A stretch of DNA of 36,584 bases. Origin: a virus. Its lineage: Duplodnaviria > Heunggongvirae > Uroviricota > Caudoviricetes. The notes below the pieces were generated by a model that did not search any database, was not told the origin of the DNA, and saw nothing but the letters and a program-made list of their open reading frames with translations. The position numbers and the translations under genes were made by a program. Positions 935 to 36,584 of the stretch are shown one piece after another; positions within the stretch are counted from its first letter, which is position 1; each line of letters begins with the position of its first letter. The DNA lies in the IMG/VR virus record IMGVR_UViG_2718218304_000003, one strand, 5' to 3'.

Positions 935-2620
935 GTGAATATAAACGTCGCCGAATTGTTAAATGGGAATTACATTCTGTTATTATTTGTGGTCCTCGCG
1001 CTTGGGCTATGTCTCGGAAAGTTACGACTTGGTTCGATCCAACTGGGTAATTCCATTGGCGTTTTAGTCGTATCGCTGTTATTAGGCCAACAACATTTCA
1101 GCATTAACACCGATGCGCTTAATCTTGGCTTTATGCTGTTTATTTTCTGCGTCGGGGTCGAAGCCGGACCGAACTTTTTTTCCATTTTTTTTCGCGATGG
1201 GAAAAATTACCTAATGTTAGCACTGGTGATGGTTGGCAGTGCGCTGGTGATCGCCTTAGGGTTAGGTAAGCTGTTTGGCTGGGATATTGGCCTGACGGCC
1301 GGTATGTTAGCAGGCTCTATGACGTCGACACCGGTTCTGGTCGGTGCTGGCGATACACTGCGTCATTCCGGCATGGAAAGCAGGCAGCTCTCACTGGCAC
1401 TGGATAATCTGAGCCTCGGGTATGCCTTAACCTATTTAATCGGTCTGGTGAGTTTGATTGTTGGTGCGCGTTACTTGCCGAAATTGCAGCATCAGGACTT
1501 ACAGACCAGCGCCCAGCAAATCGCCCGCGAACGTGGCCTGGACACTGATGCCAACCGTAAGGTTTATTTACCGGTGATCCGCGCCTATCGCGTCGGCCCG
1601 GAACTGGTGGCCTGGACCGACGGCAAAAATCTGCGTGAACTGGGTATTTATCGACAAACCGGCTGCTACATTGAACGTATTCGACGTAACGGGATTCTGG
1701 CAAATCCAGACGGTGATGCCGTGCTACAAATGGGCGATGAAATAGCGTTGGTAGGCTATCCCGACGCCCATGCCCGACTCGATCCCAGCTTCCGTAACGG
1801 TAAAGAAGTTTTCGATCGTGACCTTCTCGACATGCGTATCGTCACTGAAGAAGTGGTCGTTAAAAACCATAACGCTGTAGGTAAACGTCTCGCACAACTG
1901 AAGTTGACCGATCACGGTTGCTTCCTTAACCGCGTCATTCGTAGCCAGATTGAGATGCCGATAGATGACAACGTCGTGCTTAACAAAGGTGACGTTTTAC
2001 AAGTCAGCGGCGATGCCCGCCGCGTAAAAACCATCGCCGATCGCATCGGCTTTATCTCGATTCACAGCCAGGTCACTGACCTGCTGGCATTCTGCGCCTT
2101 CTTTGTTATTGGGCTGATGATCGGGATGATCACCTTCCAGTTCAGCACATTCAGTTTCGGCATGGGGAACGCTGCCGGGTTGTTATTCGCCGGAATTATG
2201 CTGGGCTTTATGCGTGCTAACCACCCGACCTTCGGTTACATTCCGCAGGGTGCATTAAGCATGGTGAAAGAGTTCGGCTTGATGGTGTTTATGGCAGGCG
2301 TTGGTCTGAGCGCCGGTAGCGGTATTAATAACGGCCTGGGCGCGATTGGCGGTCAGATGTTGATTGCCGGATTGATTGTCAGTCTGGTGCCCGTGGTTAT
2401 CTGTTTCTTGTTCGGTGCTTATGTATTGCGAATGAACCGCGCGCTGTTGTTCGGCGCAATGATGGGCGCACGTACCTGCGCGCCGGCAATGGAGATCATC
2501 AGTGATACAGCTCGCAGTAACATCCCGGCGCTGGGCTATGCGGGCACCTATGCAATCGCCAACGTCCTGCTGACGCTGGCAGGGACAATCATCGTCATGC
2601 TATGGCCAGGATTAGGATAA
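935..2620 (+). CDS. ybjL: putative AAE-family transporter YbjL
   Basis: 561-aa ORF (GTG start) with duplicated membrane domains and central soluble domains; recognisable as YbjL; synteny with ybjM-grxA. Confidence 0.8.
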
Positions 2621-2732
2621 AACTGAAGTTGCCCTGAAAATGAAATTTTTTTGCACAACCGCAGAACTTTTCCGCAGGGCATCAGTCTTAATTAGTGCCA
2701 CTGCTTTTCTTTGATGTCCCCATTTTGTGGAG

Positions 2733-2775
2733 CCCATCAACCCCGCCATTTCGGTTCAAGGTTGATGGGTTTTTT
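2733..2775 (+). terminator. intrinsic terminator in host/prophage junction
   Basis: Perfect 10-bp stem CCCATCAACC / GGTTGATGGG (2733-2742 / 2760-2769), 17-nt loop, T6 run at 2770-2775. Confidence 0.5.
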
Positions 2776-2855
2776 GTTGTCTGAAATTTATGCCGTTTAA
2801 AATCATGATGTTAGAAGCACTGTTTTTTAACGATGGCGACAAAATGGCGGCAGCG

Positions 2856-3074
2856 TCAAAGAGAGAGCGCCACCTGTCCTGATTTCATTGGATGCGGCTG
2901 AACCGGATTTGACTCTTTTGGCGTTGCAATCGAACGAACAAAAGTTTCATGGGTAACAAAAGTATGGCTGCAGTTAATGTTCTGGCACTGGTTGTAACGC
3001 TCTTTGGTCAATGAAGATACCTGAAAACTGCTGCGAGTATGGGCGGCACTTCCACACAGTGGGCAAATCATCAT
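2856..3074 (-). CDS. ogr: late-gene transcriptional activator, Ogr/B family zinc finger
   Basis: C-x2-C...C-x4-C motif (CPLCG...CQNINC); start moved to internal Met (MICPLCG) giving 72 aa, the Ogr length; sits next to gene D as in P2/186. Confidence 0.8.
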   Translation of the reverse strand: MMICPLCGSAAHTRSSFQVSSLTKERYNQCQNINCSHTFVTHETFVRSIATPKESNPVQPHPMKSGQVALSL

Positions 3075-3164
3075 TTTTCGAGTTCTCCCCATTTTTGCTA
3101 AATTCACAATAATGATACCGCATTATTCCATTTTGCAAACTTAAAAGTTCTCCATTGCGAAGAA

Positions 3165-10144: not shown

Positions 10145-10711
10145 TCAGGGGGATTCATTGCTCTTATTTGCCGGAAATTTTCTATAAATTGTGGAAACAC
10201 CCACATCAAAAATCAGTGCAATACGCTGTCTTGATTCTCCGGCCTCGAGTAAACGTCCAATCTGTGCCCACTTTTCGGTGGTCAACTTAGGACGGCGTCC
10301 ACCTACTCTGCCTTTAGCACGAGCTGCAGCCAGCCCCGCCCTGGTACGTTCAACTATCAGTTCGCGTTCCATTTCAGCCAGGGCCCCCATGACATGAAAA
10401 AAGAAACGGCCCATTGGGGTGCTGGTATCAATACTGTCAGTCAGGCTTCGGAAATTCACGCCACGCTGGCGCAGCTCTTCTATCAGCGTAACGAGATGCC
10501 GCATACTGCGCCCCAACCTGTCCAGCTTCCAGACAACCAGAGTGTCACCTGCCGATAATGTCCTGAGCAGTTTTTTCAGTCCCGGTCTGTCGGACTTAGT
10601 GCCACTGATTTTGTCCTCAAAAATCCGCTCACATCCCGCGCAGTTCAGTGCATTACGTTGCAAATCGGTGTTCTGGTCATTTGTTGACACGCGTACATAG
10701 CCAATAAGCAT
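10145..10711 (-). CDS. site-specific DNA invertase, serine recombinase (Gin/Cin/Pin/Hin family)
   Basis: N-terminal catalytic motif GYVRVSTNDQ and near-collinear match to Gin/Pin (VVWKLDRLGRSM, SPMGRFFFHVMGALAEMERELI); start moved to MLIGYV. Confidence 0.9.
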   Translation of the reverse strand: MLIGYVRVSTNDQNTDLQRNALNCAGCERIFEDKISGTKSDRPGLKKLLRTLSAGDTLVVWKLDRLGRSMRHLVTLIEELRQRGVNFRSLTDSIDTSTPMGRFFFHVMGALAEMERELIVERTRAGLAAARAKGRVGGRRPKLTTEKWAQIGRLLEAGESRQRIALIFDVGVSTIYRKFPANKSNESP

Positions 10712-24635: not shown

Positions 24636-25691
24636 TTAAAAATTATTTTCTTCAATAGAGAACTCAATCCCTCGGGATAACTTATCAATATTCACATCAA
24701 ATGCGATATCTGTTAATTCACCATCCTCGATTTCATACATAACTTCAATTTCAATATCGAAACTAATCTCTTGAACTTCAGTTCGTGTGGTTGTCTCCAT
24801 TGGAATCATTACTTTATCTTCGCTATCCCAATACCCATTATTAAAGTCTGGACCAGAAACAGTAACTTCAAAATCTACAGAAACAGAGAAGGTCGCTAGA
24901 CAATAATTATTGTCAATCTTAATTATTGATGGTTCAAAGTCATCAATATTGACGACTTCAAATGAATCCAATTCAGCGTCTTCCCAAGTTGAAACGTTAT
25001 ATCCATCGGCATCATTGAGTTGGGCAATTACGTCCGCTCTTATGTCTTCACGTTTGCTTTCGATAAACTGCATCAATTTATTACTTAATTCGTTTGTATG
25101 CGTATTGTATTCACCTAGAAACTTATCAAGTGAATCAATTTGATGAAGATTGTTTTTACCATCACAATAATTTTTTAAGTCACTATCCTCAGAAATGATA
25201 TACACATCTTCATCATTAACAAATCGCTCTACCGCAGCTAAAGTGATTGCATCAGGAAACTCACTTTTTTTCTTATTTTGCCCAAATGGTGGTTCTTTGC
25301 CAAAGTATTTATCTAAAACCTCATTAAGATCTATCACTTCTATTGTAGCTAATTTGGCGTGACATCCTTTCAAAAAATCATCAAAAACTTTTTGTGCTGC
25401 TTCGTGAATTTCATGTTCGTTAAATTGCTGAAAAAAACCATGGAGCGGTCCATTATCAATACTATTCAAAAGCCTAGCTTTTCTTTGTACTGTGTTTATA
25501 GCCTGCAGAGCATCCTTTATTGATTCCTCTATTTTACCTTTTACTTCTCTCTCTACAACTGTAGTTGTAATTAAGACTAAATCACCTTTCGCACATAATT
25601 CATGGAAAGCTTTAAATGCTACCCCCTCAAAATGAAGACCAGCCTTTACGTACGTTTGTGTGTCAATAAATACCTTATTTGTTTTAAGCAT
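24636..25691 (-). CDS. PIN-like domain protein with acidic C-terminal domain; candidate accessory/defence gene
   Basis: 351 aa; SD AGGA before ATG; N-terminus has PIN-style motifs (VFIDT ... VVERE ... IISEDSDL); C-terminal ~150 aa very acidic; AT-rich gene. Confidence 0.7.
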   Translation of the reverse strand: MLKTNKVFIDTQTYVKAGLHFEGVAFKAFHELCAKGDLVLITTTVVEREVKGKIEESIKDALQAINTVQRKARLLNSIDNGPLHGFFQQFNEHEIHEAAQKVFDDFLKGCHAKLATIEVIDLNEVLDKYFGKEPPFGQNKKKSEFPDAITLAAVERFVNDEDVYIISEDSDLKNYCDGKNNLHQIDSLDKFLGEYNTHTNELSNKLMQFIESKREDIRADVIAQLNDADGYNVSTWEDAELDSFEVVNIDDFEPSIIKIDNNYCLATFSVSVDFEVTVSGPDFNNGYWDSEDKVMIPMETTTRTEVQEISFDIEIEVMYEIEDGELTDIAFDVNIDKLSRGIEFSIEENNF

Positions 25692-26050: not shown

Positions 26051-26587
26051 TTATTCATCATAGTGTTCTAATTTCGCTTTTGCTAAACGTCCATGTAAGT
26101 GATTAACAAAATGTAAATTATTCAAAATCAGGCTCATAACGCATTTTAATTGCATCCAGCTAATAAAGTAAATGAAGAAAATACCAATGTATTTAAACAA
26201 GTCTTTATTAGCTTGATAAACAGGTAATGCATAAAACACTGCCTTAACCAAAAAGAAAATTAGAATCCCAGCCATAACACAAGCAGATGTGATTATTGTA
26301 TAAACTAATTTCTCTATTCTTGGTGAGTCATGCTCATTTTTTATATAACTTACATCATCCTTAACAATACTATTCATTGCATTCGGATATAAAAAACCGA
26401 CCCATAAACCGACAATAGTGAATATAGATGCTGAAATATTTATAAGCGCACCTAAAATATCTTTTGCATCATTATAGGAAAAACTTTTGAACGAAAAATA
26501 GCTTATAACGCAGCACAAAACAACAGCAACAAAATTAATCGCCTGCTGTTTTGCAACTGTTATTATCAAACCTTCCGTTTCTGTCAT
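26051..26587 (-). CDS. 4-TM membrane protein, second gene of candidate accessory/defence operon
   Basis: 178 aa with four hydrophobic helices; ATG 1 nt after the stop of the upstream gene; SD GGAAGG inside upstream gene. Confidence 0.75.
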   Translation of the reverse strand: MTETEGLIITVAKQQAINFVAVVLCCVISYFSFKSFSYNDAKDILGALINISASIFTIVGLWVGFLYPNAMNSIVKDDVSYIKNEHDSPRIEKLVYTIITSACVMAGILIFFLVKAVFYALPVYQANKDLFKYIGIFFIYFISWMQLKCVMSLILNNLHFVNHLHGRLAKAKLEHYDE

Positions 26588-26588
26588 A

Positions 26589-27788
26589 TCAACCTTCCGC
26601 TATCTTTTTTGTGGATGCAGCTTCAGATTCTTTAATGGATGCTTCCTCAGCATATTTTACTTCACTAATCAAATCATCACGAATTTTGTTTATTTCATCC
26701 AGTAAAAAACGCGCTGAATAATGCTCAACCCCATCCGAATCTTGAAGAGGAAGTTTAGTCCTGGCTACATAGCTACTGAGCCAAACCGGATTAGCACGAT
26801 CAGCCAGTAAAAAACCCACATCCCATTCAGACTCTTCACCTCTCATTGAGAAGAGATTTCGAAGCTCATCCGATGATGGTGCACCGTCAATTTTAACTTC
26901 AATTTTACGAGGCTGCTCCAAAACAGGAGGTGCCCCAATAAGCTTATTACGCTTTTCTTCACCCACCAGAGATGCTAAAGCTACACTTGTTAGCTTCAAC
27001 AATGGTTGCCTTGTGTCATTTTGGTTTATTACCGTTGTATCCTTTATCAATGTGTGTGTAATTTTATGCCTTAACCTTTCAAAGTTTTCCTCAGCGGCTT
27101 TAAGTTTTGTTTCTTCCAATACAAACTTGAAGATACAGTTTATCTCATTTTTGCCATCTTTATATTGAAACTTAGTATTGTAGACATCCACACAACGACC
27201 AGGGGTCTTAGCTGATTCAAATGTACGCTTAGATTTCGTTCTTTTACCTAACTTACTATTATTATTTACATGCTGAATGAAGTATTGTGCGAAGAGATAA
27301 GTATCAGCGAAAGAATGGGGGAATCTGATTGATGCTATTTTATTCAACTCAGGAATAATCCAGTAATAGCAGGGTTCACCCCAAATTATTTTATCCTCAC
27401 CATGTTCTCTTCCCGCCCTAATGGTTCCTTTACTATCACCACTTACTTTAGAACCGACCTTAATACCATGTATTCCGTTACCGTTCCCCACTTCACGGTA
27501 TAAAACAATTACTGCATCTTTAGTCTGGCTGTCCCTCACAAGGCCTCGACTGTAAACTCGTGTTCGCAGAGGTTGTTCTTCTTTATTCCATGGGAGAGTC
27601 TGCTCAAAATTTTTATCCTTGAGCCACCCTTCTAAATCGTCCAAAACCCCCATAAGATCGCCGAATTTATAATCAAGCTCTTCGGGTTTATTCTTTAAAC
27701 GATAAAACCCACAAGCAGTAATATCAAAGAAGGTGATTGAGCCGTTGTCCACTAAAACTCCTTTTTGCCAAAGCAACACACGATACAT
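26589..27788 (-). CDS. unknown soluble protein, first gene of candidate accessory/defence operon
   Basis: 399-aa ORF, AT-rich, no family I can name; R-x4-H motif (RHKITH); translationally coupled to the membrane gene. Confidence 0.7.
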   Translation of the reverse strand: MYRVLLWQKGVLVDNGSITFFDITACGFYRLKNKPEELDYKFGDLMGVLDDLEGWLKDKNFEQTLPWNKEEQPLRTRVYSRGLVRDSQTKDAVIVLYREVGNGNGIHGIKVGSKVSGDSKGTIRAGREHGEDKIIWGEPCYYWIIPELNKIASIRFPHSFADTYLFAQYFIQHVNNNSKLGKRTKSKRTFESAKTPGRCVDVYNTKFQYKDGKNEINCIFKFVLEETKLKAAEENFERLRHKITHTLIKDTTVINQNDTRQPLLKLTSVALASLVGEEKRNKLIGAPPVLEQPRKIEVKIDGAPSSDELRNLFSMRGEESEWDVGFLLADRANPVWLSSYVARTKLPLQDSDGVEHYSARFLLDEINKIRDDLISEVKYAEEASIKESEAASTKKIAEG

Positions 27789-28588: not shown

Positions 28589-30961
28589 TTAATACAGATC
28601 CCGCCACTTATCATCTTCCTGCAAACGCTGGTTCCGATAGAAGATACGCAGGCCTGCTCCTGACGGAATACTGCCACCGCGAAGGAGTAAATCGACCTCT
28701 TTCTCGCTGCCATCAAATCCTCTGGACTTCAGTTCATAGACGAGCTGCTGTCGCTGATGATCTGTAATTCGCTGTTTGTAGTCTCTACGCCGTTTCGGTT
28801 TCACCAGGCGTAACCTTGCAGCCAGTTCCCGGCGCTCTTTTTTGTTCATACTGTGCAGGTAATCGTGCAATTCCTTGTCATCCATGCGGGTGATATCCGT
28901 TCTGGTATCCCCATCAGCTGATTTGTCTTTCCCTTGTTGGTACAAATTTTCAGCAAGGGGACAGTTATTGCCACGAGTCCAAGGGGCGCAAGCGCCCTGG
29001 TCGGCTGCCGCCTCCTGAACATCAACGGCCTTACGAACCATTTTCCACTTCACGGCATGAGTGCAGATCTTGCCCTCTGCAATAGGTGACCAGATGCCAT
29101 AAATACGAATGCCGTGATCGCCATAGGCGGTCGGCTCTTCGTTGATTTCATAAGCGGTTCTGATGAGGTGATATTTGCGGGGAACCAGTACGCCGCCCTG
29201 CTTCATGATGTAGGTGGCAAAACAACCAGCATCAGCAGCAGCCAGGATGGCATCAAGGCGCGGGTTATCCAGTACCGGCGCACCTGCTTTTTTGTCCCCC
29301 TGTTGCCTTGCCGCCTGACCAGCCAGCAATCGCAGTTCACGGTAAGCCTGACGCCCCGGAATGCCAAAGAAGCGGAATTGCTGAACACGATGCAGAGACG
29401 CCCAGGCATTAACGTATTCAGCATTATCACGCAGGGATTTCCCCGTTTCCTTGCTGATCTCGCCAGCCAGACCACGCCCGTCAATGTTCTTACTGATGTA
29501 TTTCGCGATGTAGCTTGTTGGCGTACCTTTGCGCGGGTTAATCAACTCAGACTTAAAGCGCGGCCCAGTGTTATTGCCCAGTTCCTCGCGGTCTTCACGG
29601 ATGGCAAACTTACGCAGTAATGCAGTGATGGCGCGGCGGTCTTTTTTGCGCATAAAACACAACAGGTGCCAGTGAACTGTACCGTCATGATGCGGCTCAG
29701 CCACCCGCACGCCATACCACCGCAATCCGGCTTTGTGCATCGCCTTACGAAATGCAGCAAACATGCCGACCAGATAATCACTGCTTTGTCTTACCGTCGC
29801 ATTTGTCCAAGTTGGGTTGGGCCTGCCATTATTTAGCGTGGAATGGAAACGTGACGGACAGGTGATGGTGTAGAAAACGGCGCAGTCACCGCGCATTTCC
29901 GCGATAAGCTCCAGGCCTTTAACACAGGCCATCATCTCATTGCGGCGATGCGCAGGGTTGCTGCTGCTGGCGTTTACCACATCCTCCATGTCCAGCGTGT
30001 CGCCGTCTTCGTTCACCAGTTCATGAGAACGAAAAAACTCCAGCGACTTACGGCGCTGCTCGCGTTTATGCATCACGGCTTCATAGCTGACATAGGGAGA
30101 TGCTTTTTTGCTGACCAGGCAGACAGCACGCAACTGCTCTTCCCGCCATTCACAACGCATCTTCCATAATTTCCGGTACCACCAGTCAGCGCACAACATA
30201 CGCGCCAGCGAACCCGGAATGAGTTCATAGGGCACGGGTTTACGGCGGTTTCTTTTCCGGCGGAGTTGCTCAAACGCAGGCGGGATGACATCCAGACGCA
30301 GGGTTTCCGCTGCCACCTTTTCCCATGTCTTGCGGATTTCTTCTGGCTTAACGTCATCGGTGACATACAAATCGCCACAAGCTGCATCAAGGCACATGCT
30401 CATATGCGCAGCTACCAGGGTGGACAGGCGTTTCACCTGATCCTGACTCATTTCAGGCAGGATCAGCAGGCCGTCCAGCCCTTCATGGCTTGCCATAAAG
30501 CGAAAAGAAGTGGATAGCTGACAGTCGCGTACATGCTCCAGCCGTTCCAGACATGGCTTAATCGTTTCACGCAAATAGCGGGAATAAGCCTTTGGCCTGC
30601 CCAGGCTGCTGAAGTATTCAATACGTTGCATCAGTGGCTTGCTGATATGGGAAGGCTGGGCATTGACGTCCGCCAGAATGACCATATCTGGATTAAAACG
30701 CTGCTGCTCATGCGCCAGCTTTGCCCGACTAATGAGCTTATCCTGCTCCATTTCGCGCTGGACAGGATCACGGGATTCATTAAAGAAATAACGCTCCCAG
30801 ACCTGATCACTCAGTGCCTCGCGGCGCAGCTGTTCCTGCTCGTTATCGGCAGCGTACAGAGCGATCAGGTTTGAAAGCGCAGAAACTGAAGATTGCTCTT
30901 CTGTCTCTACGTAAGGATTGATTGCTTTTTTCTCAGCATTCCAGGAATAGCTGTAGTTCAT
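28589..30961 (-). CDS. A: replication initiation endonuclease gpA (rolling-circle)
   Basis: Conserved P2 A motifs [12 protein letters not shown] and [12 protein letters not shown]; start moved to the ATG whose A is shared with the upstream TAA stop, giving 790 aa. Confidence 0.9.
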
Positions 30962-31791
30962 TACGCAATCTCCAGTTCGAGCTGTGAAGGCTGCAAACCA
31001 TTCGACAGCCAATCAGAAACTGAAGGTGGGCGAACAGCTTCAATTGCACCTTTTAAAATTGCGCAACGGTTTTTCAGAATGACAGCTTTCAGCTCCTTTT
31101 CCGTCAGATTGCGCGAATACTCAGCCTCCTGAATAGCCCGCGTCAGCTCAGGATATTTGCTATTAAATTTGGGGACATTGCAGGCAAGATTTGTACTGTC
31201 GGCAGTCGCCAGTGGGTAATTTCCCAACACACGACCGTCAAGCATGCGCAAACCATGAACAGCTGTTTTGAAATTGTGTCGGCAATAAATTGCTTCAAAA
31301 GCGTCCTGCATACGACGATGCCAGTGCGCAGTTCTGATAGCCGCATATTCACCAGACGATCCAAAGCAGACACGAGGCCATTCACGACATAGCTCGATAA
31401 GCCGATCGATTGACTCGTGCAGATGCCAGACGGGAGTTGCCTTCCCGTAGAACATTTTCGGAACTTCGTTTATCAGGGCATCATTGTCACGTTCACCTCC
31501 GTCCACAACATCAGGAATGACAAAAAAAGCGACCTTAGGATGGTGGTAATAGTTCAGGAGCCATTTATAAAAATCACTCCAGTTAATTTTTAGCCCACGC
31601 ACCCATGCAGAAAATGCGCCGTTATCAATGCCGACGACCTGAGCGTGCTGAATGGACGCCGCAATCTGATCTGGTCGTACATAGGAGACGAAAGCGCCAG
31701 CTCCGCTCACCGCAATACGATGAACGTCGCCAGCACTTCCCCAGACAGGCGTCCCATGGAAATGATGAATTCCGTGGTGCATTTCTTTCAC
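30961..31791 (-). CDS. hypothetical protein coupled between dam and A
   Basis: 276-aa ORF (GTG at 31791 or ATG at 31782); overlaps dam stop and A start; no family recognised. Confidence 0.65.
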
Positions 31792-32642
31792 ACTTGCACC
31801 CCGAAAATAACAGTAGAGTCACGTCCCCTACTAAAATCGGCACTAAACCAATTAGCAGATTTAGTGGCAATCATCTCTGTTGCAAATTTTCCCTCCCCCG
31901 CTGCAACGCCGATGCTGCGTTTCGCCCTGATGTAGTGGTGAGTGAAATTACGATAAAGGGACCGGGTCAAAGACGTGTTACTGTTAGAAACAATGACCGG
32001 ATGTCCTTCTGATGACCGATGTTCAAGAATGGATGCCAGGTGATACTGATCATCTTCAGTGAAACCATCAGTGTGATAGCCGGAAAACGTACCGTCATAA
32101 GGCGGATCGCAATACACCACATCCCCCACCTTCAACATCGCCAGCGTTTCATCAAAGCTGGCGCAGATAAACGTTGCCCGCTGGGCTTTCTCTGCAAATG
32201 CGCGAATTTCTTTTTCAGGGAAATACGGATTTTTATAATTACCGTAGGGAATGTTGAAATGCCCGCTCTTGTTATAGCGACATAAACCACGGTAACCGTG
32301 ACGATTGAGATACAGGAAATATACCGCTTTCATGAAATCAGTAATTTCAGTGGAGTAATTAAACTCCTGCCTTATGTTGTAATAAGCCACCTCCCTGTTT
32401 GCTTCCTCAAATAAAGCTCTGGCACGAGATATAAACGCCTCACAATCAGCAGCAACCTTTTTATAGAGGTTGATTAAATCAGGATTAATATCCGCAACAA
32501 GATAGCTGGGGTAATCCGTCTCCATCATCACTGCACAGGAACCCGCGAAAGGTTCAACCAGTCGCGGGCCAGCAGGAAGATGCTTTTTCAGTTCGGACAT
32601 TATGGCGGTTTTATTTCCTGCCCATTTCAGGATGGTGCTCAT
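31788..32642 (-). CDS. dam: DNA adenine methyltransferase (Dam family)
   Basis: LKWAGNK, EPFAGS and DPPY motifs; collinear with E. coli Dam; start moved to internal Met preceded by SD GGAGGTG, overlapping upstream stop (ATGA). Confidence 0.9.
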
Positions 32643-32866
32643 ACAGCACCTCCGTTGTAATGTTTGCCTTTCAGCTCTGCGATTTCCTGACAGGTAATGC
32701 AAAGCTGCACACCCGGAATGGCACGGCGGCGTGCTGGCGGAATTGGCGCTTCACACTCAACGCAAAGCACGCGGGACACGCCCGGCGTTTTGGCACGGGC
32801 AGCACGGATATGGCGTTGGCGTTCTTCTTCAACGCGCTGCTGTACGAGATCCATTGCATCAGCCAT
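32639..32866 (-). CDS. TraR/DksA-family C4 zinc-finger protein
   Basis: 75 aa with CVEC...CITC four-cysteine finger. Confidence 0.7.
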   Translation of the reverse strand: MADAMDLVQQRVEEERQRHIRAARAKTPGVSRVLCVECEAPIPPARRRAIPGVQLCITCQEIAELKGKHYNGGAV

Positions 32867-33105
32867 CAGTGGATCTCCTGCGCTTCGTTCTGGATTGCTT
32901 CAGCAGTCACACGCAGCAGTTCTGCCGCTTCGACGTGGTTTAGCTGGCGGGAGGTGATATGACACGCCAGGCTATCGAGGCGAGCAGCCATTGCTTCAGC
33001 CCTTGCCCGGCGTTCTTCCAGACGAGCCTCTGTCAGTAAAAGATTAAGGCCTGCATCATCCGGTCCGGTTTTGGTCGTGAGGGTTTCAATATTACGCATA
33101 AGCAA
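32866..33105 (-). CDS. hypothetical protein
   Basis: 79-aa ORF in the early operon, coupled to the downstream gene; no family recognised. Confidence 0.5.
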   Translation of the reverse strand: MLMRNIETLTTKTGPDDAGLNLLLTEARLEERRARAEAMAARLDSLACHITSRQLNHVEAAELLRVTAEAIQNEAQEIH

Positions 33106-33166
33106 TTCTCCTGAATTTAGATAAAGGGATGCCCGGCGGGTTTACGCCATTAATTTCATTAGTTGG

Positions 33167-33508
33167 TTAATTCGGCATGGTTAGCCGTCTGGGAAATAAG
33201 CTCACCACTGCACGAAAATGATTCATTGCTTTAATCAACTCCCGCTTTTCGTCAGTGGTCAGCTCATTAATGCTGATGCTATGACGTTCAGCTGGAATTT
33301 TTGCCATAAAGAATATGGCAGCCAGTGCCCGTTTATTTTGTTCATTATTGATATCCCGAGGATCACGCATATCTTTAATAAACCGCTCAAGCTCTGACTC
33401 AATATTCAAACCAAAAACTTTCGCCCTTAACTCCGCAATATGATTAAGTCCATTCAGGCGTTCACCGGGTCTTAATGGAACAGTCGCCGCAGCGCCTTCA
33501 ATAGCCAT
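33167..33508 (-). CDS. hypothetical protein
   Basis: 113-aa ORF in the early operon. Confidence 0.5.
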   Translation of the reverse strand: MAIEGAAATVPLRPGERLNGLNHIAELRAKVFGLNIESELERFIKDMRDPRDINNEQNKRALAAIFFMAKIPAERHSISINELTTDEKRELIKAMNHFRAVVSLFPRRLTMPN

Positions 33509-33672
33509 TTGTTCCCCCGTTTTTTCGTAGATAGTTCTGCCAGCAATTCATCTTGTGAACGGCACGGATGCCAGCGTTTACCATCCTCACCCATGATCCA
33601 GCCGTGACCGTAGTGCATTGCCGGACTTTGTTTTACCAGCAGCGATGCAAATGATGGTTCTTTCGTCAGCAT
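33472..33672 (-). CDS. hypothetical small protein
   Basis: 66 aa from internal Met; directly downstream of cII; start and reality uncertain. Confidence 0.35.
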   Translation of the reverse strand: MLTKEPSFASLLVKQSPAMHYGHGWIMGEDGKRWHPCRSQDELLAELSTKKRGNKWLLKALRRLFH

Positions 33673-33679
33673 AAGCACC

Positions 33680-34189
33680 TCACAGCAAACCGAATGAAGC
33701 ACCGAGGCCAGTCACGGTATCAACTGCACTCGCCATCGCAGGATTAGCCTGTAAACGGGCCTGCAATGAAACAGCAGCCAGCGCCATCAGTCGTGTAACA
33801 GAGTTAATGCTGCTGATCGCATCACGACGGCCTGCACTGGTTTTTACATCGCCAGAAACCGCACCTGCCGCGACACGCCCTATCTCTGCAGTTGCACTCA
33901 TGACGTAATGCGGCAGTTTCTCTTTTGCCACCTCATTAATCGGTACACATGGCAGGCAGTGAATCTGTGCCAGAAAGCCATCTACCAGCGTTGAATCTTC
34001 AGTCAGATCGGTAAGCAACCAGATTTCTGGTGCGGTTAATAAATGAGGTTGAGCTGGGTTCAGCTTGTTCCGCAGAATCTGCACATTCATGCCTGCACGT
34101 TCTGCCAGTTGCACTAGGTTGTGGCGCAATGCGAATGCACGACAGGCTTCATCAAAATGTGGATGTTTGGAAACTTGGTAATCAAACAT
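33680..34189 (-). CDS. cII: CII-like transcriptional activator (phage 186 type)
   Basis: 169 aa from [11 protein letters not shown], matching my recollection of 186 CII length and N-terminus; follows apl. Confidence 0.65.
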
Positions 34190-34221
34190 GGTCAATGCCT
34201 CTGATGTATTTCAGAATCGAA

Positions 34222-34443
34222 CTAATTAAGGTTTAGATTGCATTCTGAAAGCGCATCAACGGTCATGGCTGCTATGTTGATCATCACTTTTTCACGTTTT
34301 TTATCTTTGCGCAGACGGTGACGGATAAGGCGTCCGTCAGCCAACATGTCATTGATGGTATCGATGGACAGCCCTGTCAGCTCGCTATAGCGTTCAATAG
34401 TCACATGAGGCGTGGTAAGAGTGATTGAAATGTTAGGTCTCAT
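34222..34443 (-). CDS. apl: Apl/Cox-like excisionase and switch regulator
   Basis: 73-aa basic protein, first gene of the early operon, divergent from cI. Confidence 0.55.
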
Positions 34444-34568
34444 GATGCAACATTCCTCGTTTAATGATGATTAATCAGGACGAATACGGATCGTTTGTAT
34501 TTTGTGAACACCATAAACATACGATCGCACAGTGAAATCGTCAAGATAAAAGTTCACTTGGAGTGACC
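34444..34568. promoter_or_regulatory. lysis-lysogeny switch region
   Basis: 125-bp divergent intergenic region between apl and cI with repeated GTGAA/TTCAC motifs; operators not resolved. Confidence 0.4.
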
Positions 34569-35138
34569 ATGAATTTGGAGAAAGGCGGACGAGGCGCTAT
34601 AGAGCGCATGGTAGAAGCTTATGGATTCAAAACTCGACAGGCGTTGTGCGATCATTTAGGAATCTCTAAAAGTACACTCGCCACACGCTACATGCGTGAC
34701 TCATTCCCAGCAGAATGGGTAATCCAGTGCGCCCTTGAAACGGGCACCTCGCTTAATTGGCTCACAACCGGACATGGTTCAAAGCAAACTTCAGGTAATA
34801 CAAATACTATGGAAGTTGCTAAATATGTATTATCTGATGGTGCCTTGCGTGAAGACGGTTTTTATATTTTTGATAAGGGATTTCTACCCTCTACGTTTAA
34901 AAAACCTTTTGTCATCACAGATAACAATTCTGAATTTATTTGTGATAAAGAATTTGATGATATACGTGACGGTAAATGGGTAATAAGTATTGATGGCGAA
35001 ATAACAATCCGCGACATTACTCGTTTACCCGGTGGAAGAATCTTCGTTGAAGGTGGAAACAGAGCCTTCGAGTGCAAGATAGAAGATGTTGAAATAATTG
35101 GGAAAATTATAAGTTTAACAATTAAGTACGTTAGGTAA
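34569..35138 (+). CDS. cI: CI-like immunity repressor (phage 186 type)
   Basis: 189 aa from ATG preceded by SD GGAG (ORF track starts at GTG 34563); N-terminal HTH-like domain; length close to 186 CI; AT-rich C-terminal half. Confidence 0.7.
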   Translation: MNLEKGGRGAIERMVEAYGFKTRQALCDHLGISKSTLATRYMRDSFPAEWVIQCALETGTSLNWLTTGHGSKQTSGNTNTMEVAKYVLSDGALREDGFYIFDKGFLPSTFKKPFVITDNNSEFICDKEFDDIRDGKWVISIDGEITIRDITRLPGGRIFVEGGNRAFECKIEDVEIIGKIISLTIKYVR

Positions 35139-35153
35139 TACCGGGAGGAAACT

Positions 35154-35345
35154 ATGCTTGGTAAGGTATTTTTTGTGGTTTTATCATGCTCTTTGTTATT
35201 AAACCCACTAACTACCTATGCTAAAAATTATCCTTGTTCTGGGAAAAAGGGAGGTGTCTCTCACTGTACCTCCGATGGAAAGTTCGTTTGCAATGATGGA
35301 ACTATTAGTAAATCAAAAAAAATCTGTACTAAAAACTCGCGATAA
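35154..35345 (+). CDS. small secreted cysteine-rich peptide (moron candidate)
   Basis: 63 aa; strong SD GGGAGGA; signal peptide then ~40-aa Lys-rich mature part with 4 Cys; AT-rich. Confidence 0.55.
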
Positions 35346-35453: not shown

Positions 35454-36584
35454 ATGTATGGTCGCAGGATTTCATACATTGACACTGGTTATATATACAG
35501 TAAAAATGTTCTCTATTGGAGGGCATTTTTTATGGCAGTACGAAAACTCACCACAGGAAAATGGCTTTGCGAATGTTACCCCGCCGGACGTAGTGGGCGT
35601 CGTGTGCGTAAACAATTCGCCACCAAAGGCGAAGCTCTGGCTTTTGAGCGCCATACGATGGAAGAAACCGAAGCAAAGCCCTGGCTGGGAGAATCAGTGG
35701 ATCGTCGAACACTGAAAGACGTGGTTGAGCTATGGTTCAAACTACATGGTAAATCTCTAACCGCTGGGCAGCATGTCTATGATAAATTGCTGTTGATGGT
35801 TGACGCTCTGGGCAATCCCCTTGCAACCGATCTCACCTCTAAAATGTTTGCCCACTATCGAGATAAACGCCTGACAGGTGAGATCTACTTCAGCGAGAAA
35901 TGGAAGAAAGGAGCAAGCCCGGTCACCATTAACCTGGAGCAAAGCTATCTAAGTAGTGTTTTTAGCGAACTATCCCGCCTGGGCGAATGGTCGTATCCAA
36001 ACCCACTGGAGAACATGCGAAAATTCACCATCGCAGAAAAAGAGATGGCATGGCTTACCCATGAGCAGATTGTTGAACTGCTGGCTGATTGCAAACGTCA
36101 GGACCCAATTCTGGCACTGGTAGTCAAGATATGCTTAAGCACAGGCGCACGCTGGCGAGAAGCAATAAACCTTACCCGATCACAGGTGACTAAATACCGA
36201 ATTACCTTTGTAAGAACGAAGGGGAAGAAAAACAGAAGCATCCCTATCAGTAAAGAGCTTTATGAAGAGATCATGGCGCTTGATGGGTTCAATTTCTTCA
36301 CAGACTGCTATTTTCAATTTTTATCCGTGATGGAAAAAACGTCAATCGTGCTCCCTCGCGGTCAACTGACACACGTTCTGCGCCATACGTTTGCGGCGCA
36401 TTTCATGATGTCGGGTGGAAATATCCTTGCTTTGCAAAAAATCCTCGGACATCACGATATAAAAATGACTATGCGTTACGCTCATCTGGCACCGGATCAT
36501 CTGGAAACGGCGCTCCGTTTCAATCCTCTGGCAACGCTGCCAAGTGGCGACAAAGTGGCGGCAGCGGTTGGCATTACCCCGTAA
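35454..36584 (+). CDS. int: tyrosine integrase (P2/186 family)
   Basis: C-terminal catalytic region with R...HxxR...Y (VLRHTFAAHF, MRYAHL); true start probably the internal MAVRKL near 35532; stop is the last codon of the window. Confidence 0.9.
   Translation: MYGRRISYIDTGYIYSKNVLYWRAFFMAVRKLTTGKWLCECYPAGRSGRRVRKQFATKGEALAFERHTMEETEAKPWLGESVDRRTLKDVVELWFKLHGKSLTAGQHVYDKLLLMVDALGNPLATDLTSKMFAHYRDKRLTGEIYFSEKWKKGASPVTINLEQSYLSSVFSELSRLGEWSYPNPLENMRKFTIAEKEMAWLTHEQIVELLADCKRQDPILALVVKICLSTGARWREAINLTRSQVTKYRITFVRTKGKKNRSIPISKELYEEIMALDGFNFFTDCYFQFLSVMEKTSIVLPRGQLTHVLRHTFAAHFMMSGGNILALQKILGHHDIKMTMRYAHLAPDHLETALRFNPLATLPSGDKVAAAVGITP

Follow-up and report, generated by a model that had tools for sequence, protein, structure and literature searches.

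The terminator of the small-RNA gene rybB as the probable attachment site of a P2-family prophage with a 186-type integrase in Escherichia coli

Prophages with 186-type integrases have been described at the 3' ends of several RNA genes, the targets given in PMC3448106 being tRNA-Ile for phage 186, tRNA-Met for PhiESP and PhiKPN, and ssrA for Fels-2 and SopEPhi, with the gene rebuilt upon integration. The same text gives tgccGCCActt as the published consensus of the 186-type Int arm sites and tgTGGaCa as that of the P2 type, separates the two classes of arm-binding domain by N-terminal discriminator residues (W/E/Y for the 186 type, Y/D/R for the P2 type), and reports three 186-type prophages, PhiECO1, PhiECO2, and PhiECO3, with one common integration site (Nilsson et al. 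2011, PMC3448106). Archer et al. 2011 (PMC3032704) place three P2-type prophages, Rybb*W, Rybb*B, and Rybb*Cr of E. coli W, B (REL606), and Crooks, respectively, at the "rybB ncRNA"; Rybb*B carries the retron Ec86, and Table 2 of that paper lists another small-RNA locus, cyaR, as a P2-type insertion site. In Salmonella, sdsR (ryeB), a stress-sigma-dependent small-RNA gene, is a recurrent phage attachment site (PMC3333887), i.e., likewise a small-RNA site but with a small RNA different from rybB. The rybB site, the group of prophages found there, and the principle of target-gene reconstitution are already known, and the analysis presented here leaves the current understanding unchanged because both site and prophage group were described in 2011. 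That the attachment core corresponds to the 3' half of the RybB terminator is not spelt out in the consulted parts of Archer et al. 2011 or Nilsson et al. 2011.

We analyzed a stretch of viral DNA of 36,584 nt (hereafter the window), which matches E. coli D9 (NZ_CP010152.1) at every position (100% identity, 0 mismatches across 36,584 nt). Because this identity extends over the whole window, the far prophage junction was taken from the D9 record. A previous sequence-only reading had located a prophage/host junction and its attachment core within the interval 2621-2855, downstream of ybjL, and a four-way alignment confirmed this location while restricting the core to 2765-2778. We consider it highly likely (probability of about 0.93) that this interval represents attR, the junction on the ogr side, of a P2-family prophage of ~33.9 kb that looks complete, encodes a 186-type integrase, and is inserted in the 3' end of rybB. 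The features relevant to this interpretation are listed below.

935-2620, plus strand: ybjL (aspartate:alanine antiporter), from the ORF list and the PGAP annotation of D9; last protein-coding host gene before the junction.
2664-2691, plus strand: presumed sigma-E promoter of rybB, in which a 16-nt spacer separates GAACTT (2664-2669) from TCTTAA (2686-2691), with G2697 as +1; identical to K-12 and tentatively assigned from the sigma-E consensus GGAACTT-N16-TCNAA.
2697-2775, plus strand: rybB, intact, encoding a 79-nt Hfq-dependent sigma-E small RNA (Rfam RF00110; MG1655 b4417).
2733-2775, plus strand: RybB intrinsic terminator, with stem 2733-2742 / 2760-2769 and U-tract 2770-2775.
2765-2778, no strand: att core, identical block ATGGGTTTTTTGTT, invariant in all four aligned sequences.
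2779-2791, no strand: imperfect right half of a 27-nt core, phage type GTCTGAAATTTAT here and host type ATCTAAAACTTAT; 10/13 identical.
2792-2855, no strand: AT-rich phage arm of attR, running from the core to the stop codon of ogr and aligning to the KP12 attP and not to the host.
2834-2841 and 2845-2852, no strand: candidate Int arm-type sites on the ogr side, TGGCGACA and TGGCGGCA, from the motif and the 186-type consensus.
2856-3074, minus strand: ogr (late-gene activator, 72 aa), first prophage gene (Pfam Ogr_Delta, E 5e-22; PGAP).
2779-36584, no strand: P2/186-like prophage body, which continues 88 nt beyond the window end.
35532-36584, plus strand: tyrosine integrase, 350 aa (Pfam Int_N PF24624, E 3e-32, and Phage_integrase PF00589, E 7e-22; PGAP).
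36545-36563, no strand: candidate Int arm-type site pair on the int side, within the last ~40 nt of int.

On the host side, the window carries grxA, ybjM, and ybjL, and host synteny had been thought to end with ybjL at 2620. Instead, the sequence remains identical to K-12 base for base across 2621-2778 (158 of the 235 bases of the interval), i.e., up to the last base of the core, and rybB follows ybjL as a further host gene. RybB was the sole above-threshold Rfam match in the window (RF00110, 105.3 bits for a gathering score of 40, E 7e-21), its plus-strand alignment (2700-2778) covering the model over the full length of 79 positions, while two matches under threshold, CyVA-1 (17.6 bits vs 41.4) and DicF (15 bits vs 48), were dismissed. 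The curated MG1655 ncRNA (b4417, 887979-888057) begins 77 nt past the end of ybjL and ends 19 nt short of the rcdA stop codon; it maps to 2697-2775 of the window, on the same strand as ybjL and between ybjL and rcdA (ybjK), although in the lysogen rcdA stands at the opposite end of the prophage. This gene shows 0 differences from K-12, as do the 76 bases upstream (2621-2696). The RefSeq PGAP annotation does not include rybB in the D9 or CV601gfp records, an omission that may explain why the gene is easily overlooked. Two minus-strand ORFs, 2548-2682 and 2612-2749, overlap ybjL and rybB and were considered spurious.

The strong terminator previously noted at 2733-2775 corresponds to a genuine hairpin, which is that of RybB and is itself the integration target. 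Its arms CCCATCAACC/GGTTGATGGG (2733-2769) form a stem of 10-12 bp followed by T6 (2770-2775), the predicted fold reaches -23 to -25.2 kcal/mol (z -3.3 to -4.0, with 0/200 shuffles as stable), and the hairpin coincides with the paired region of the Rfam RybB consensus structure. A simple terminator scanner returned no match between 2400 and 3300, which reflects a limitation of the tool and provides no evidence against the terminator, since its loop limit of 8 nt is exceeded by the 17-nt structured loop of RybB. When the minus strand was folded downstream of ogr, no convincing ogr terminator was found, the antisense of the RybB hairpin having no U-run after it. The earlier statement that the interval includes no tRNA-like structure was borne out, ARAGORN finding 0 tRNA or tmRNA in the whole window, and the target gene is not a tRNA or tmRNA, RybB alone being found by Rfam. 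Overall, the interval had been under-read: it includes a complete host small-RNA gene, the terminator of which is the attachment site.

To define the core, the K-12 attB, the window junction, the integrase-side junction of D9, and the attP of Klebsiella phage KP12 were aligned. In the 14-nt block ATGGGTTTTTTGTT, the first 11 nt are the last 11 of rybB (2765-2775): 5 bases that close the descending stem of the terminator, followed by the U-tract. Another 3 bases complete the block. The block occurs once in the window (0.02 expected by chance). The other junction had been placed outside the window and lies there by a narrow margin: a copy of the core beyond the integrase gene, which the sequence-only reading had suggested looking for, was found in D9 at window-equivalent positions 36659-36672, 75 nt after the int stop codon and with rcdA directly next. 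The in-window search for direct repeats did not find a second core copy because this copy sits 75 nt outside the window end, though it returned the 22-nt arm repeat (D20) described below. One pair returned by this type of comparison, D12 (2682-2708 vs 10586-10612, 81% identity), was judged to result from chance. The expectation that the core repeat could not be read was thus correct as to the position of the second copy, but the core could be defined exactly once the other junction, the empty site, and a free attP were included.

Core copies are identical at both prophage ends, with a single copy in attB and in attP. To the right of the block, only positions 2779, 2783, and 2787 differ from K-12 within 2779-2791, and similarity is lost from 2792 onwards. 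The right half is of the phage type in the window as in the attP of KP12 but remains of the host type at the integrase-side junction, so that the alignment displays the textbook BOB' / BOP' / POB' / POP' pattern, with the three variable positions segregating reciprocally between junctions. Since all three have the phage base in the window junction and the host base on the int side, the crossover, as far as it is resolved, lies left of 2779. Only sequence identity and the segregation of these three positions set the limits of the overlap region here, and the exact Int cleavage positions would fall within the core.

Several records are consistent with these boundaries. An attP reconstructed from the int arm, core, and ogr arm is contiguous in the excised-phage contig of Klebsiella phage KP12 (OM835953.1; 97% identity, 100% coverage). 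The annotated attL of Klebsiella phage 4LV2017, ATGGGTTTTTTGTTGCCTGC, has the same left boundary as the 14-nt core, and in that record it is the integrase-proximal junction that is annotated attL, hence the attR label proposed earlier for the ogr-proximal junction fits the one convention examined. The FDAARGOS_1248 lysogen presents the same 14-nt block followed by another phage-type right half, GCCTGAAATTTAA. Finally, the ends published for PhiECO2 (ATCC 8739) map to 2778 and to the equivalent of 36672, which is in both cases the right-hand border of the block.

Beyond the core, the phage arm and the end of int share a 22-nt direct repeat (2834-2855, abutting the ogr stop codon, vs 36545-36566; 21/22 identical). 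Within it, a double motif formed by two copies of TGGCGRCA 11 nt apart occurs in the window only at 2834 and 36545, with 0.00 occurrences expected by chance. When reverse-complemented and compared to the 186-type consensus, 36553-36563 (TGCCGCCACTT) matches at 11/11 positions and 2842-2852 (TGCCGCCATTT) at 10/11. By these matches, the locus carries at least two direct arm repeats of the 186 type on each side of the core. As an observation in its own right, the int-side pair at 36545-36566 is located inside the int coding sequence, the same DNA encoding the integrase C-terminus and a predicted binding site of the Int N-terminal domain.

The integrase itself, the stop codon of which ends on the last base of the window (36584), starts with GKW11LCE14CY16, and these W, E, and Y residues have the +3/+5 spacing of published alignment positions 16/19/21. 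Judged by this spacing, its N-terminus belongs to the 186 type. Integrases at least 99% identical are found in Escherichia phage vB_EcoM-813R9 (99.7%) and in many Klebsiella pneumoniae prophage records, while the next relatives among other named phages share ~56% identity or less, and those of the P2 type ~37% (e.g., Peduovirus P24A7b). By these sequence comparisons, neither P2-type arms nor a close relative of the P2 integrase are present, as would be required for an integration module of P2 sensu stricto.

Downstream of int, a hairpin with arms AACCCGUUU/AAAUGGGUU (9 bp followed by U6, 53-88 nt after the stop codon) includes the 14-nt core as its 3' half and T-run. Its fold is comparatively weak (-9 kcal/mol, z -2.3, 4/200 shuffles as stable), and it is probably the int terminator. 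When genome contigs were scanned with the 33-nt int-side arm plus core, one species representative matched, Escherichia sp. E1V33. Sites for accessory proteins can be proposed on sequence grounds: the strict IHF consensus WATCARNNNNTTR had no match in either arm; AATCATGATGTTA at 2801-2813 is an IHF candidate with one mismatch; and two direct repeats of AACTTATTGTTTT, 19 nt apart at window-equivalent 36608-36639 between the int stop codon and the core, are kept in KP12 and are candidate binding sites for an excision or architectural protein (Apl/Cox). The AACTTATTGTTTT motif resembles the right half of the host core, AAACTTAT.

The remainder of the window is consistent with an intact element. 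The first phage gene had been read as ending at 2856, and the ogr gene does so; from this position onwards, the minus strand encodes P2-type late genes (ogr, D, U, and the tape-measure gene). From core to core, the prophage spans 33,894 bp, and the PGAP annotation of the D9 region provides a complete P2-type gene set (Q P O N M L, tail genes, D, and ogr), with Ogr and Int confirmed by Pfam and no pseudogene flags across 33.9 kb. The lysis-lysogeny switch is of the 186 type (CI, CII, and Fil in PGAP). Taken at the level of gene content and sequence similarity, this combination corresponds to a prophage of the P2 family (Peduoviridae) whose integration module is of the 186 type.

We next consider how widely this junction occurs. 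Window positions 2400-3110 were compared by megablast to 5,426 complete E. coli genomes. The rybB-ogr junction was present in 1,105 of these (20%), with the whole ybjL-to-ogr query covered, and in most of the remaining genomes the match ended at query position 392, i.e., window position 2791. The uninterrupted ybjL-rybB-rcdA site was found in 4,227 of the 5,426 genomes (78%), hence the prophage is polymorphic for presence and absence at this site.

These data allow alternative interpretations of the interval to be evaluated. One is that the prophage inserted into an anonymous spacer downstream of ybjL, with no host gene as its target and with the terminator belonging to ybjL or ogr. This would agree with the PGAP annotations of D9 and CV601gfp, in which no feature stands between ybjL and ogr or rcdA, and with the lack of a tRNA. 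However, the same spacer yields a full-length RybB at 105 bits in Rfam, the MG1655 rybB is curated at this exact place, the final 11 nt of this gene lie within the core, and Archer et al. name the site "rybB ncRNA", which makes this interpretation extremely improbable. Another is that all of the interval belongs to the host and that the junction proper lies elsewhere, as might be imagined from the 158 of 235 bases identical to K-12. Alignment with prophage-free E. coli, the check originally proposed, instead matches only to 2791, similarity to K-12 is lost from 2792, the segment 2792-2855 aligns to the arm of the KP12 attP, and rybB is joined directly to rcdA in 4227 genomes, so that an all-host interval is almost certainly not what is observed.

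The position of the exchange leaves somewhat more room for discussion. Strands might be exchanged in the imperfect right half (2779-2791), or all 27 nt might represent the functional core, rather than the 14-nt block. P2 itself uses a 27-nt core, the 10/13 identity past the block exceeds chance, and a 7-nt inverted repeat (CATAAAT...ATTTATG) brackets this region in attP. We nevertheless regard such an exchange as unlikely, since the reciprocal states of 2779, 2783, and 2787 at the two junctions place the resolved crossover to their left, and since a different right half follows the same 14-nt block in FDAARGOS_1248; the right half may be a core-type binding site for Int without containing the exchange. 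The element could also be a fixed defective remnant, i.e., a cryptic island in which the junction would be a fossil with no present function, and many E. coli P2-like elements are indeed cryptic. This seems very unlikely here given the full P2-type gene complement free of pseudogene flags, the identical core copies and intact arm sites, a site that is empty in 78% of genomes, a near-identical attP found in excised form, and an integrase 99.7% identical in phage vB_EcoM-813R9.

Under the favored interpretation of a prophage integrated in rybB, the sequence features can be assembled into a model. Site-specific recombination by the tyrosine recombinase would insert the prophage at the 3' end of rybB, in an attB core made up of the last 5 stem bases of this gene's terminator together with its U-tract and 3 more bases, with the 13-nt imperfect extension next to it. 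Since attP has the same 14 nt, strand exchange inside the block leaves rybB (2697-2775) intact: promoter region, seed region, terminator hairpin, and U-tail are all retained, with the phage providing downstream sequence only. Because the core doubles as the 3' half of the int-side hairpin, the probable int terminator, both the int transcript and rybB would retain a terminator after integration. The pairs of arm sites flanking the core are the expected binding sites with which the Int N-terminal domain would build the intasome. With its core overlapping the gene, the gene unchanged, and the core duplicated, the locus has, at the level of sequence, the characteristics of a prophage that enters an RNA gene at its 3' end and rebuilds the gene in doing so.

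An effect of the prophage on RybB itself can also be envisioned. The phage sequence starting at 2779 could alter RybB termination or its 3' end, or the hairpin in the int 3' UTR, with its RybB-like AUGGGUUUUUU, could yield an Hfq-binding competitor or mimic of RybB. We regard both as highly improbable; if either were true, the prophage state would be linked to the sigma-E envelope-stress regulon. For annotation purposes, the interval is better described as rybB plus attR than as a spacer with a terminator, and the prophage boundary as 2765-2778 rather than 2620 or 2856. The locus also represents a clean example of a 186-type integrase using the terminator of a regulatory small RNA, instead of a tRNA, as attB.

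The closest known elements are Rybb*W, Rybb*B, and Rybb*Cr (which as a group correspond to PhiECO1-3); they occupy the same site in the same orientation (ybjL-rybB / ogr ... int / rcdA). PhiECO2 (NC_010468, 3023202-3058101) sits between ybjL and rcdA in ATCC 8739, with an Ogr identical to that of the window (WP_000972391.1) and with int and CI genes of the same type. Cargo differs from that of Rybb*B, which carries retron Ec86, whereas the window copy encodes a PDC-M18 candidate pair and a PIN_12 protein in its variable region. Like the window prophage, phage 186, PhiESP/PhiKPN, and Fels-2/SopEPhi are described as copying the 3' end of an RNA gene in attP, with the same type of arm consensus and N-terminal domain, but their targets are tRNA or tmRNA genes, whereas the gene used by the window prophage encodes a regulatory small RNA that depends on Hfq. 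The shared core is also shorter, at 14 nt (27 when imperfect positions are included) vs the 50-110 nt reported for PhiESP and PhiKPN (PMC3448106). Phage P2 sensu stricto has the same layout, with int and ogr converging on attP, but differs by its arm repeats, which are of the 186 type here and not the published tgTGGaCa, by its integrase type (~37% identical), and by its switch, the CI/CII/Fil genes found here being of the 186 type.

Comparisons outside Escherichia point to Klebsiella. The integrase, int-side arm, and 14-nt core of Klebsiella phage 4LV2017 (Elveevirus), the Kp48xx prophage records, and KP12 are 99% identical to those of the window, and the attP of KP12 is uninterrupted. In 4LV2017, which comes from another host genus, GCCTGC follows the 14-nt block, vs ATCTAA in E. 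coli. The phage-type bases after the block (GTCTG or GCCTG) are closer to this 4LV2017 attL (GCCTGC) than to the E. coli attB. Together, an int/attP module ~99% identical between E. coli and Klebsiella pneumoniae and these Klebsiella-like bases hint at cross-genus traffic, in which E. coli would provide an imperfectly matching site.

Several additional observations concern the prophage body and individual genomes. The early region (28589-35345) is 186-like, comprising CI at 34569-35138 (plus strand), CII, Fil, gene A, apl-like and DinI-like genes, a TraR/DksA-family gene, and a Dam methylase, yet the late activator adjoining attP is ogr. Two proteins from this part of the genome had no Pfam match, a 273-aa protein (30961-31782, minus strand), which also had no PADLOC match, and a 63-aa protein encoded in the interval from CI to int (35154-35345, plus strand). 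A variable cargo region separates the replication gene A from the portal gene. It includes a 387-aa gene (26589-27752, minus strand) that PADLOC identifies as candidate defense protein PDC-M18A (E 3e-31) and an adjoining 178-aa gene (26051-26587, minus strand) identified as PDC-M18B (E 3e-18), both with no Pfam match, as well as a 351-aa PIN_12 protein (24636-25691, minus strand; Pfam E 2e-25) that adjoins the portal gene and had no PADLOC match. Around the insertion site, the NZ_CP173539.1 lysogen is longer by ~630 bp in the ybjL-ogr interval, where a "hypothetical protein" is annotated, and the non-lysogen NZ_CM169477.1 has an IS1 within rcdA, directly adjoining the site. Lastly, a Hin/Cin-type "recombinase family protein" (10145-10711, minus strand) adjoins oppositely oriented genes for a tail-fiber C-terminus and tail-fiber assembly, and the segment 10145-11959 looks like an invertible host-range segment by analogy with the G segment of Mu or the C segment of P1.
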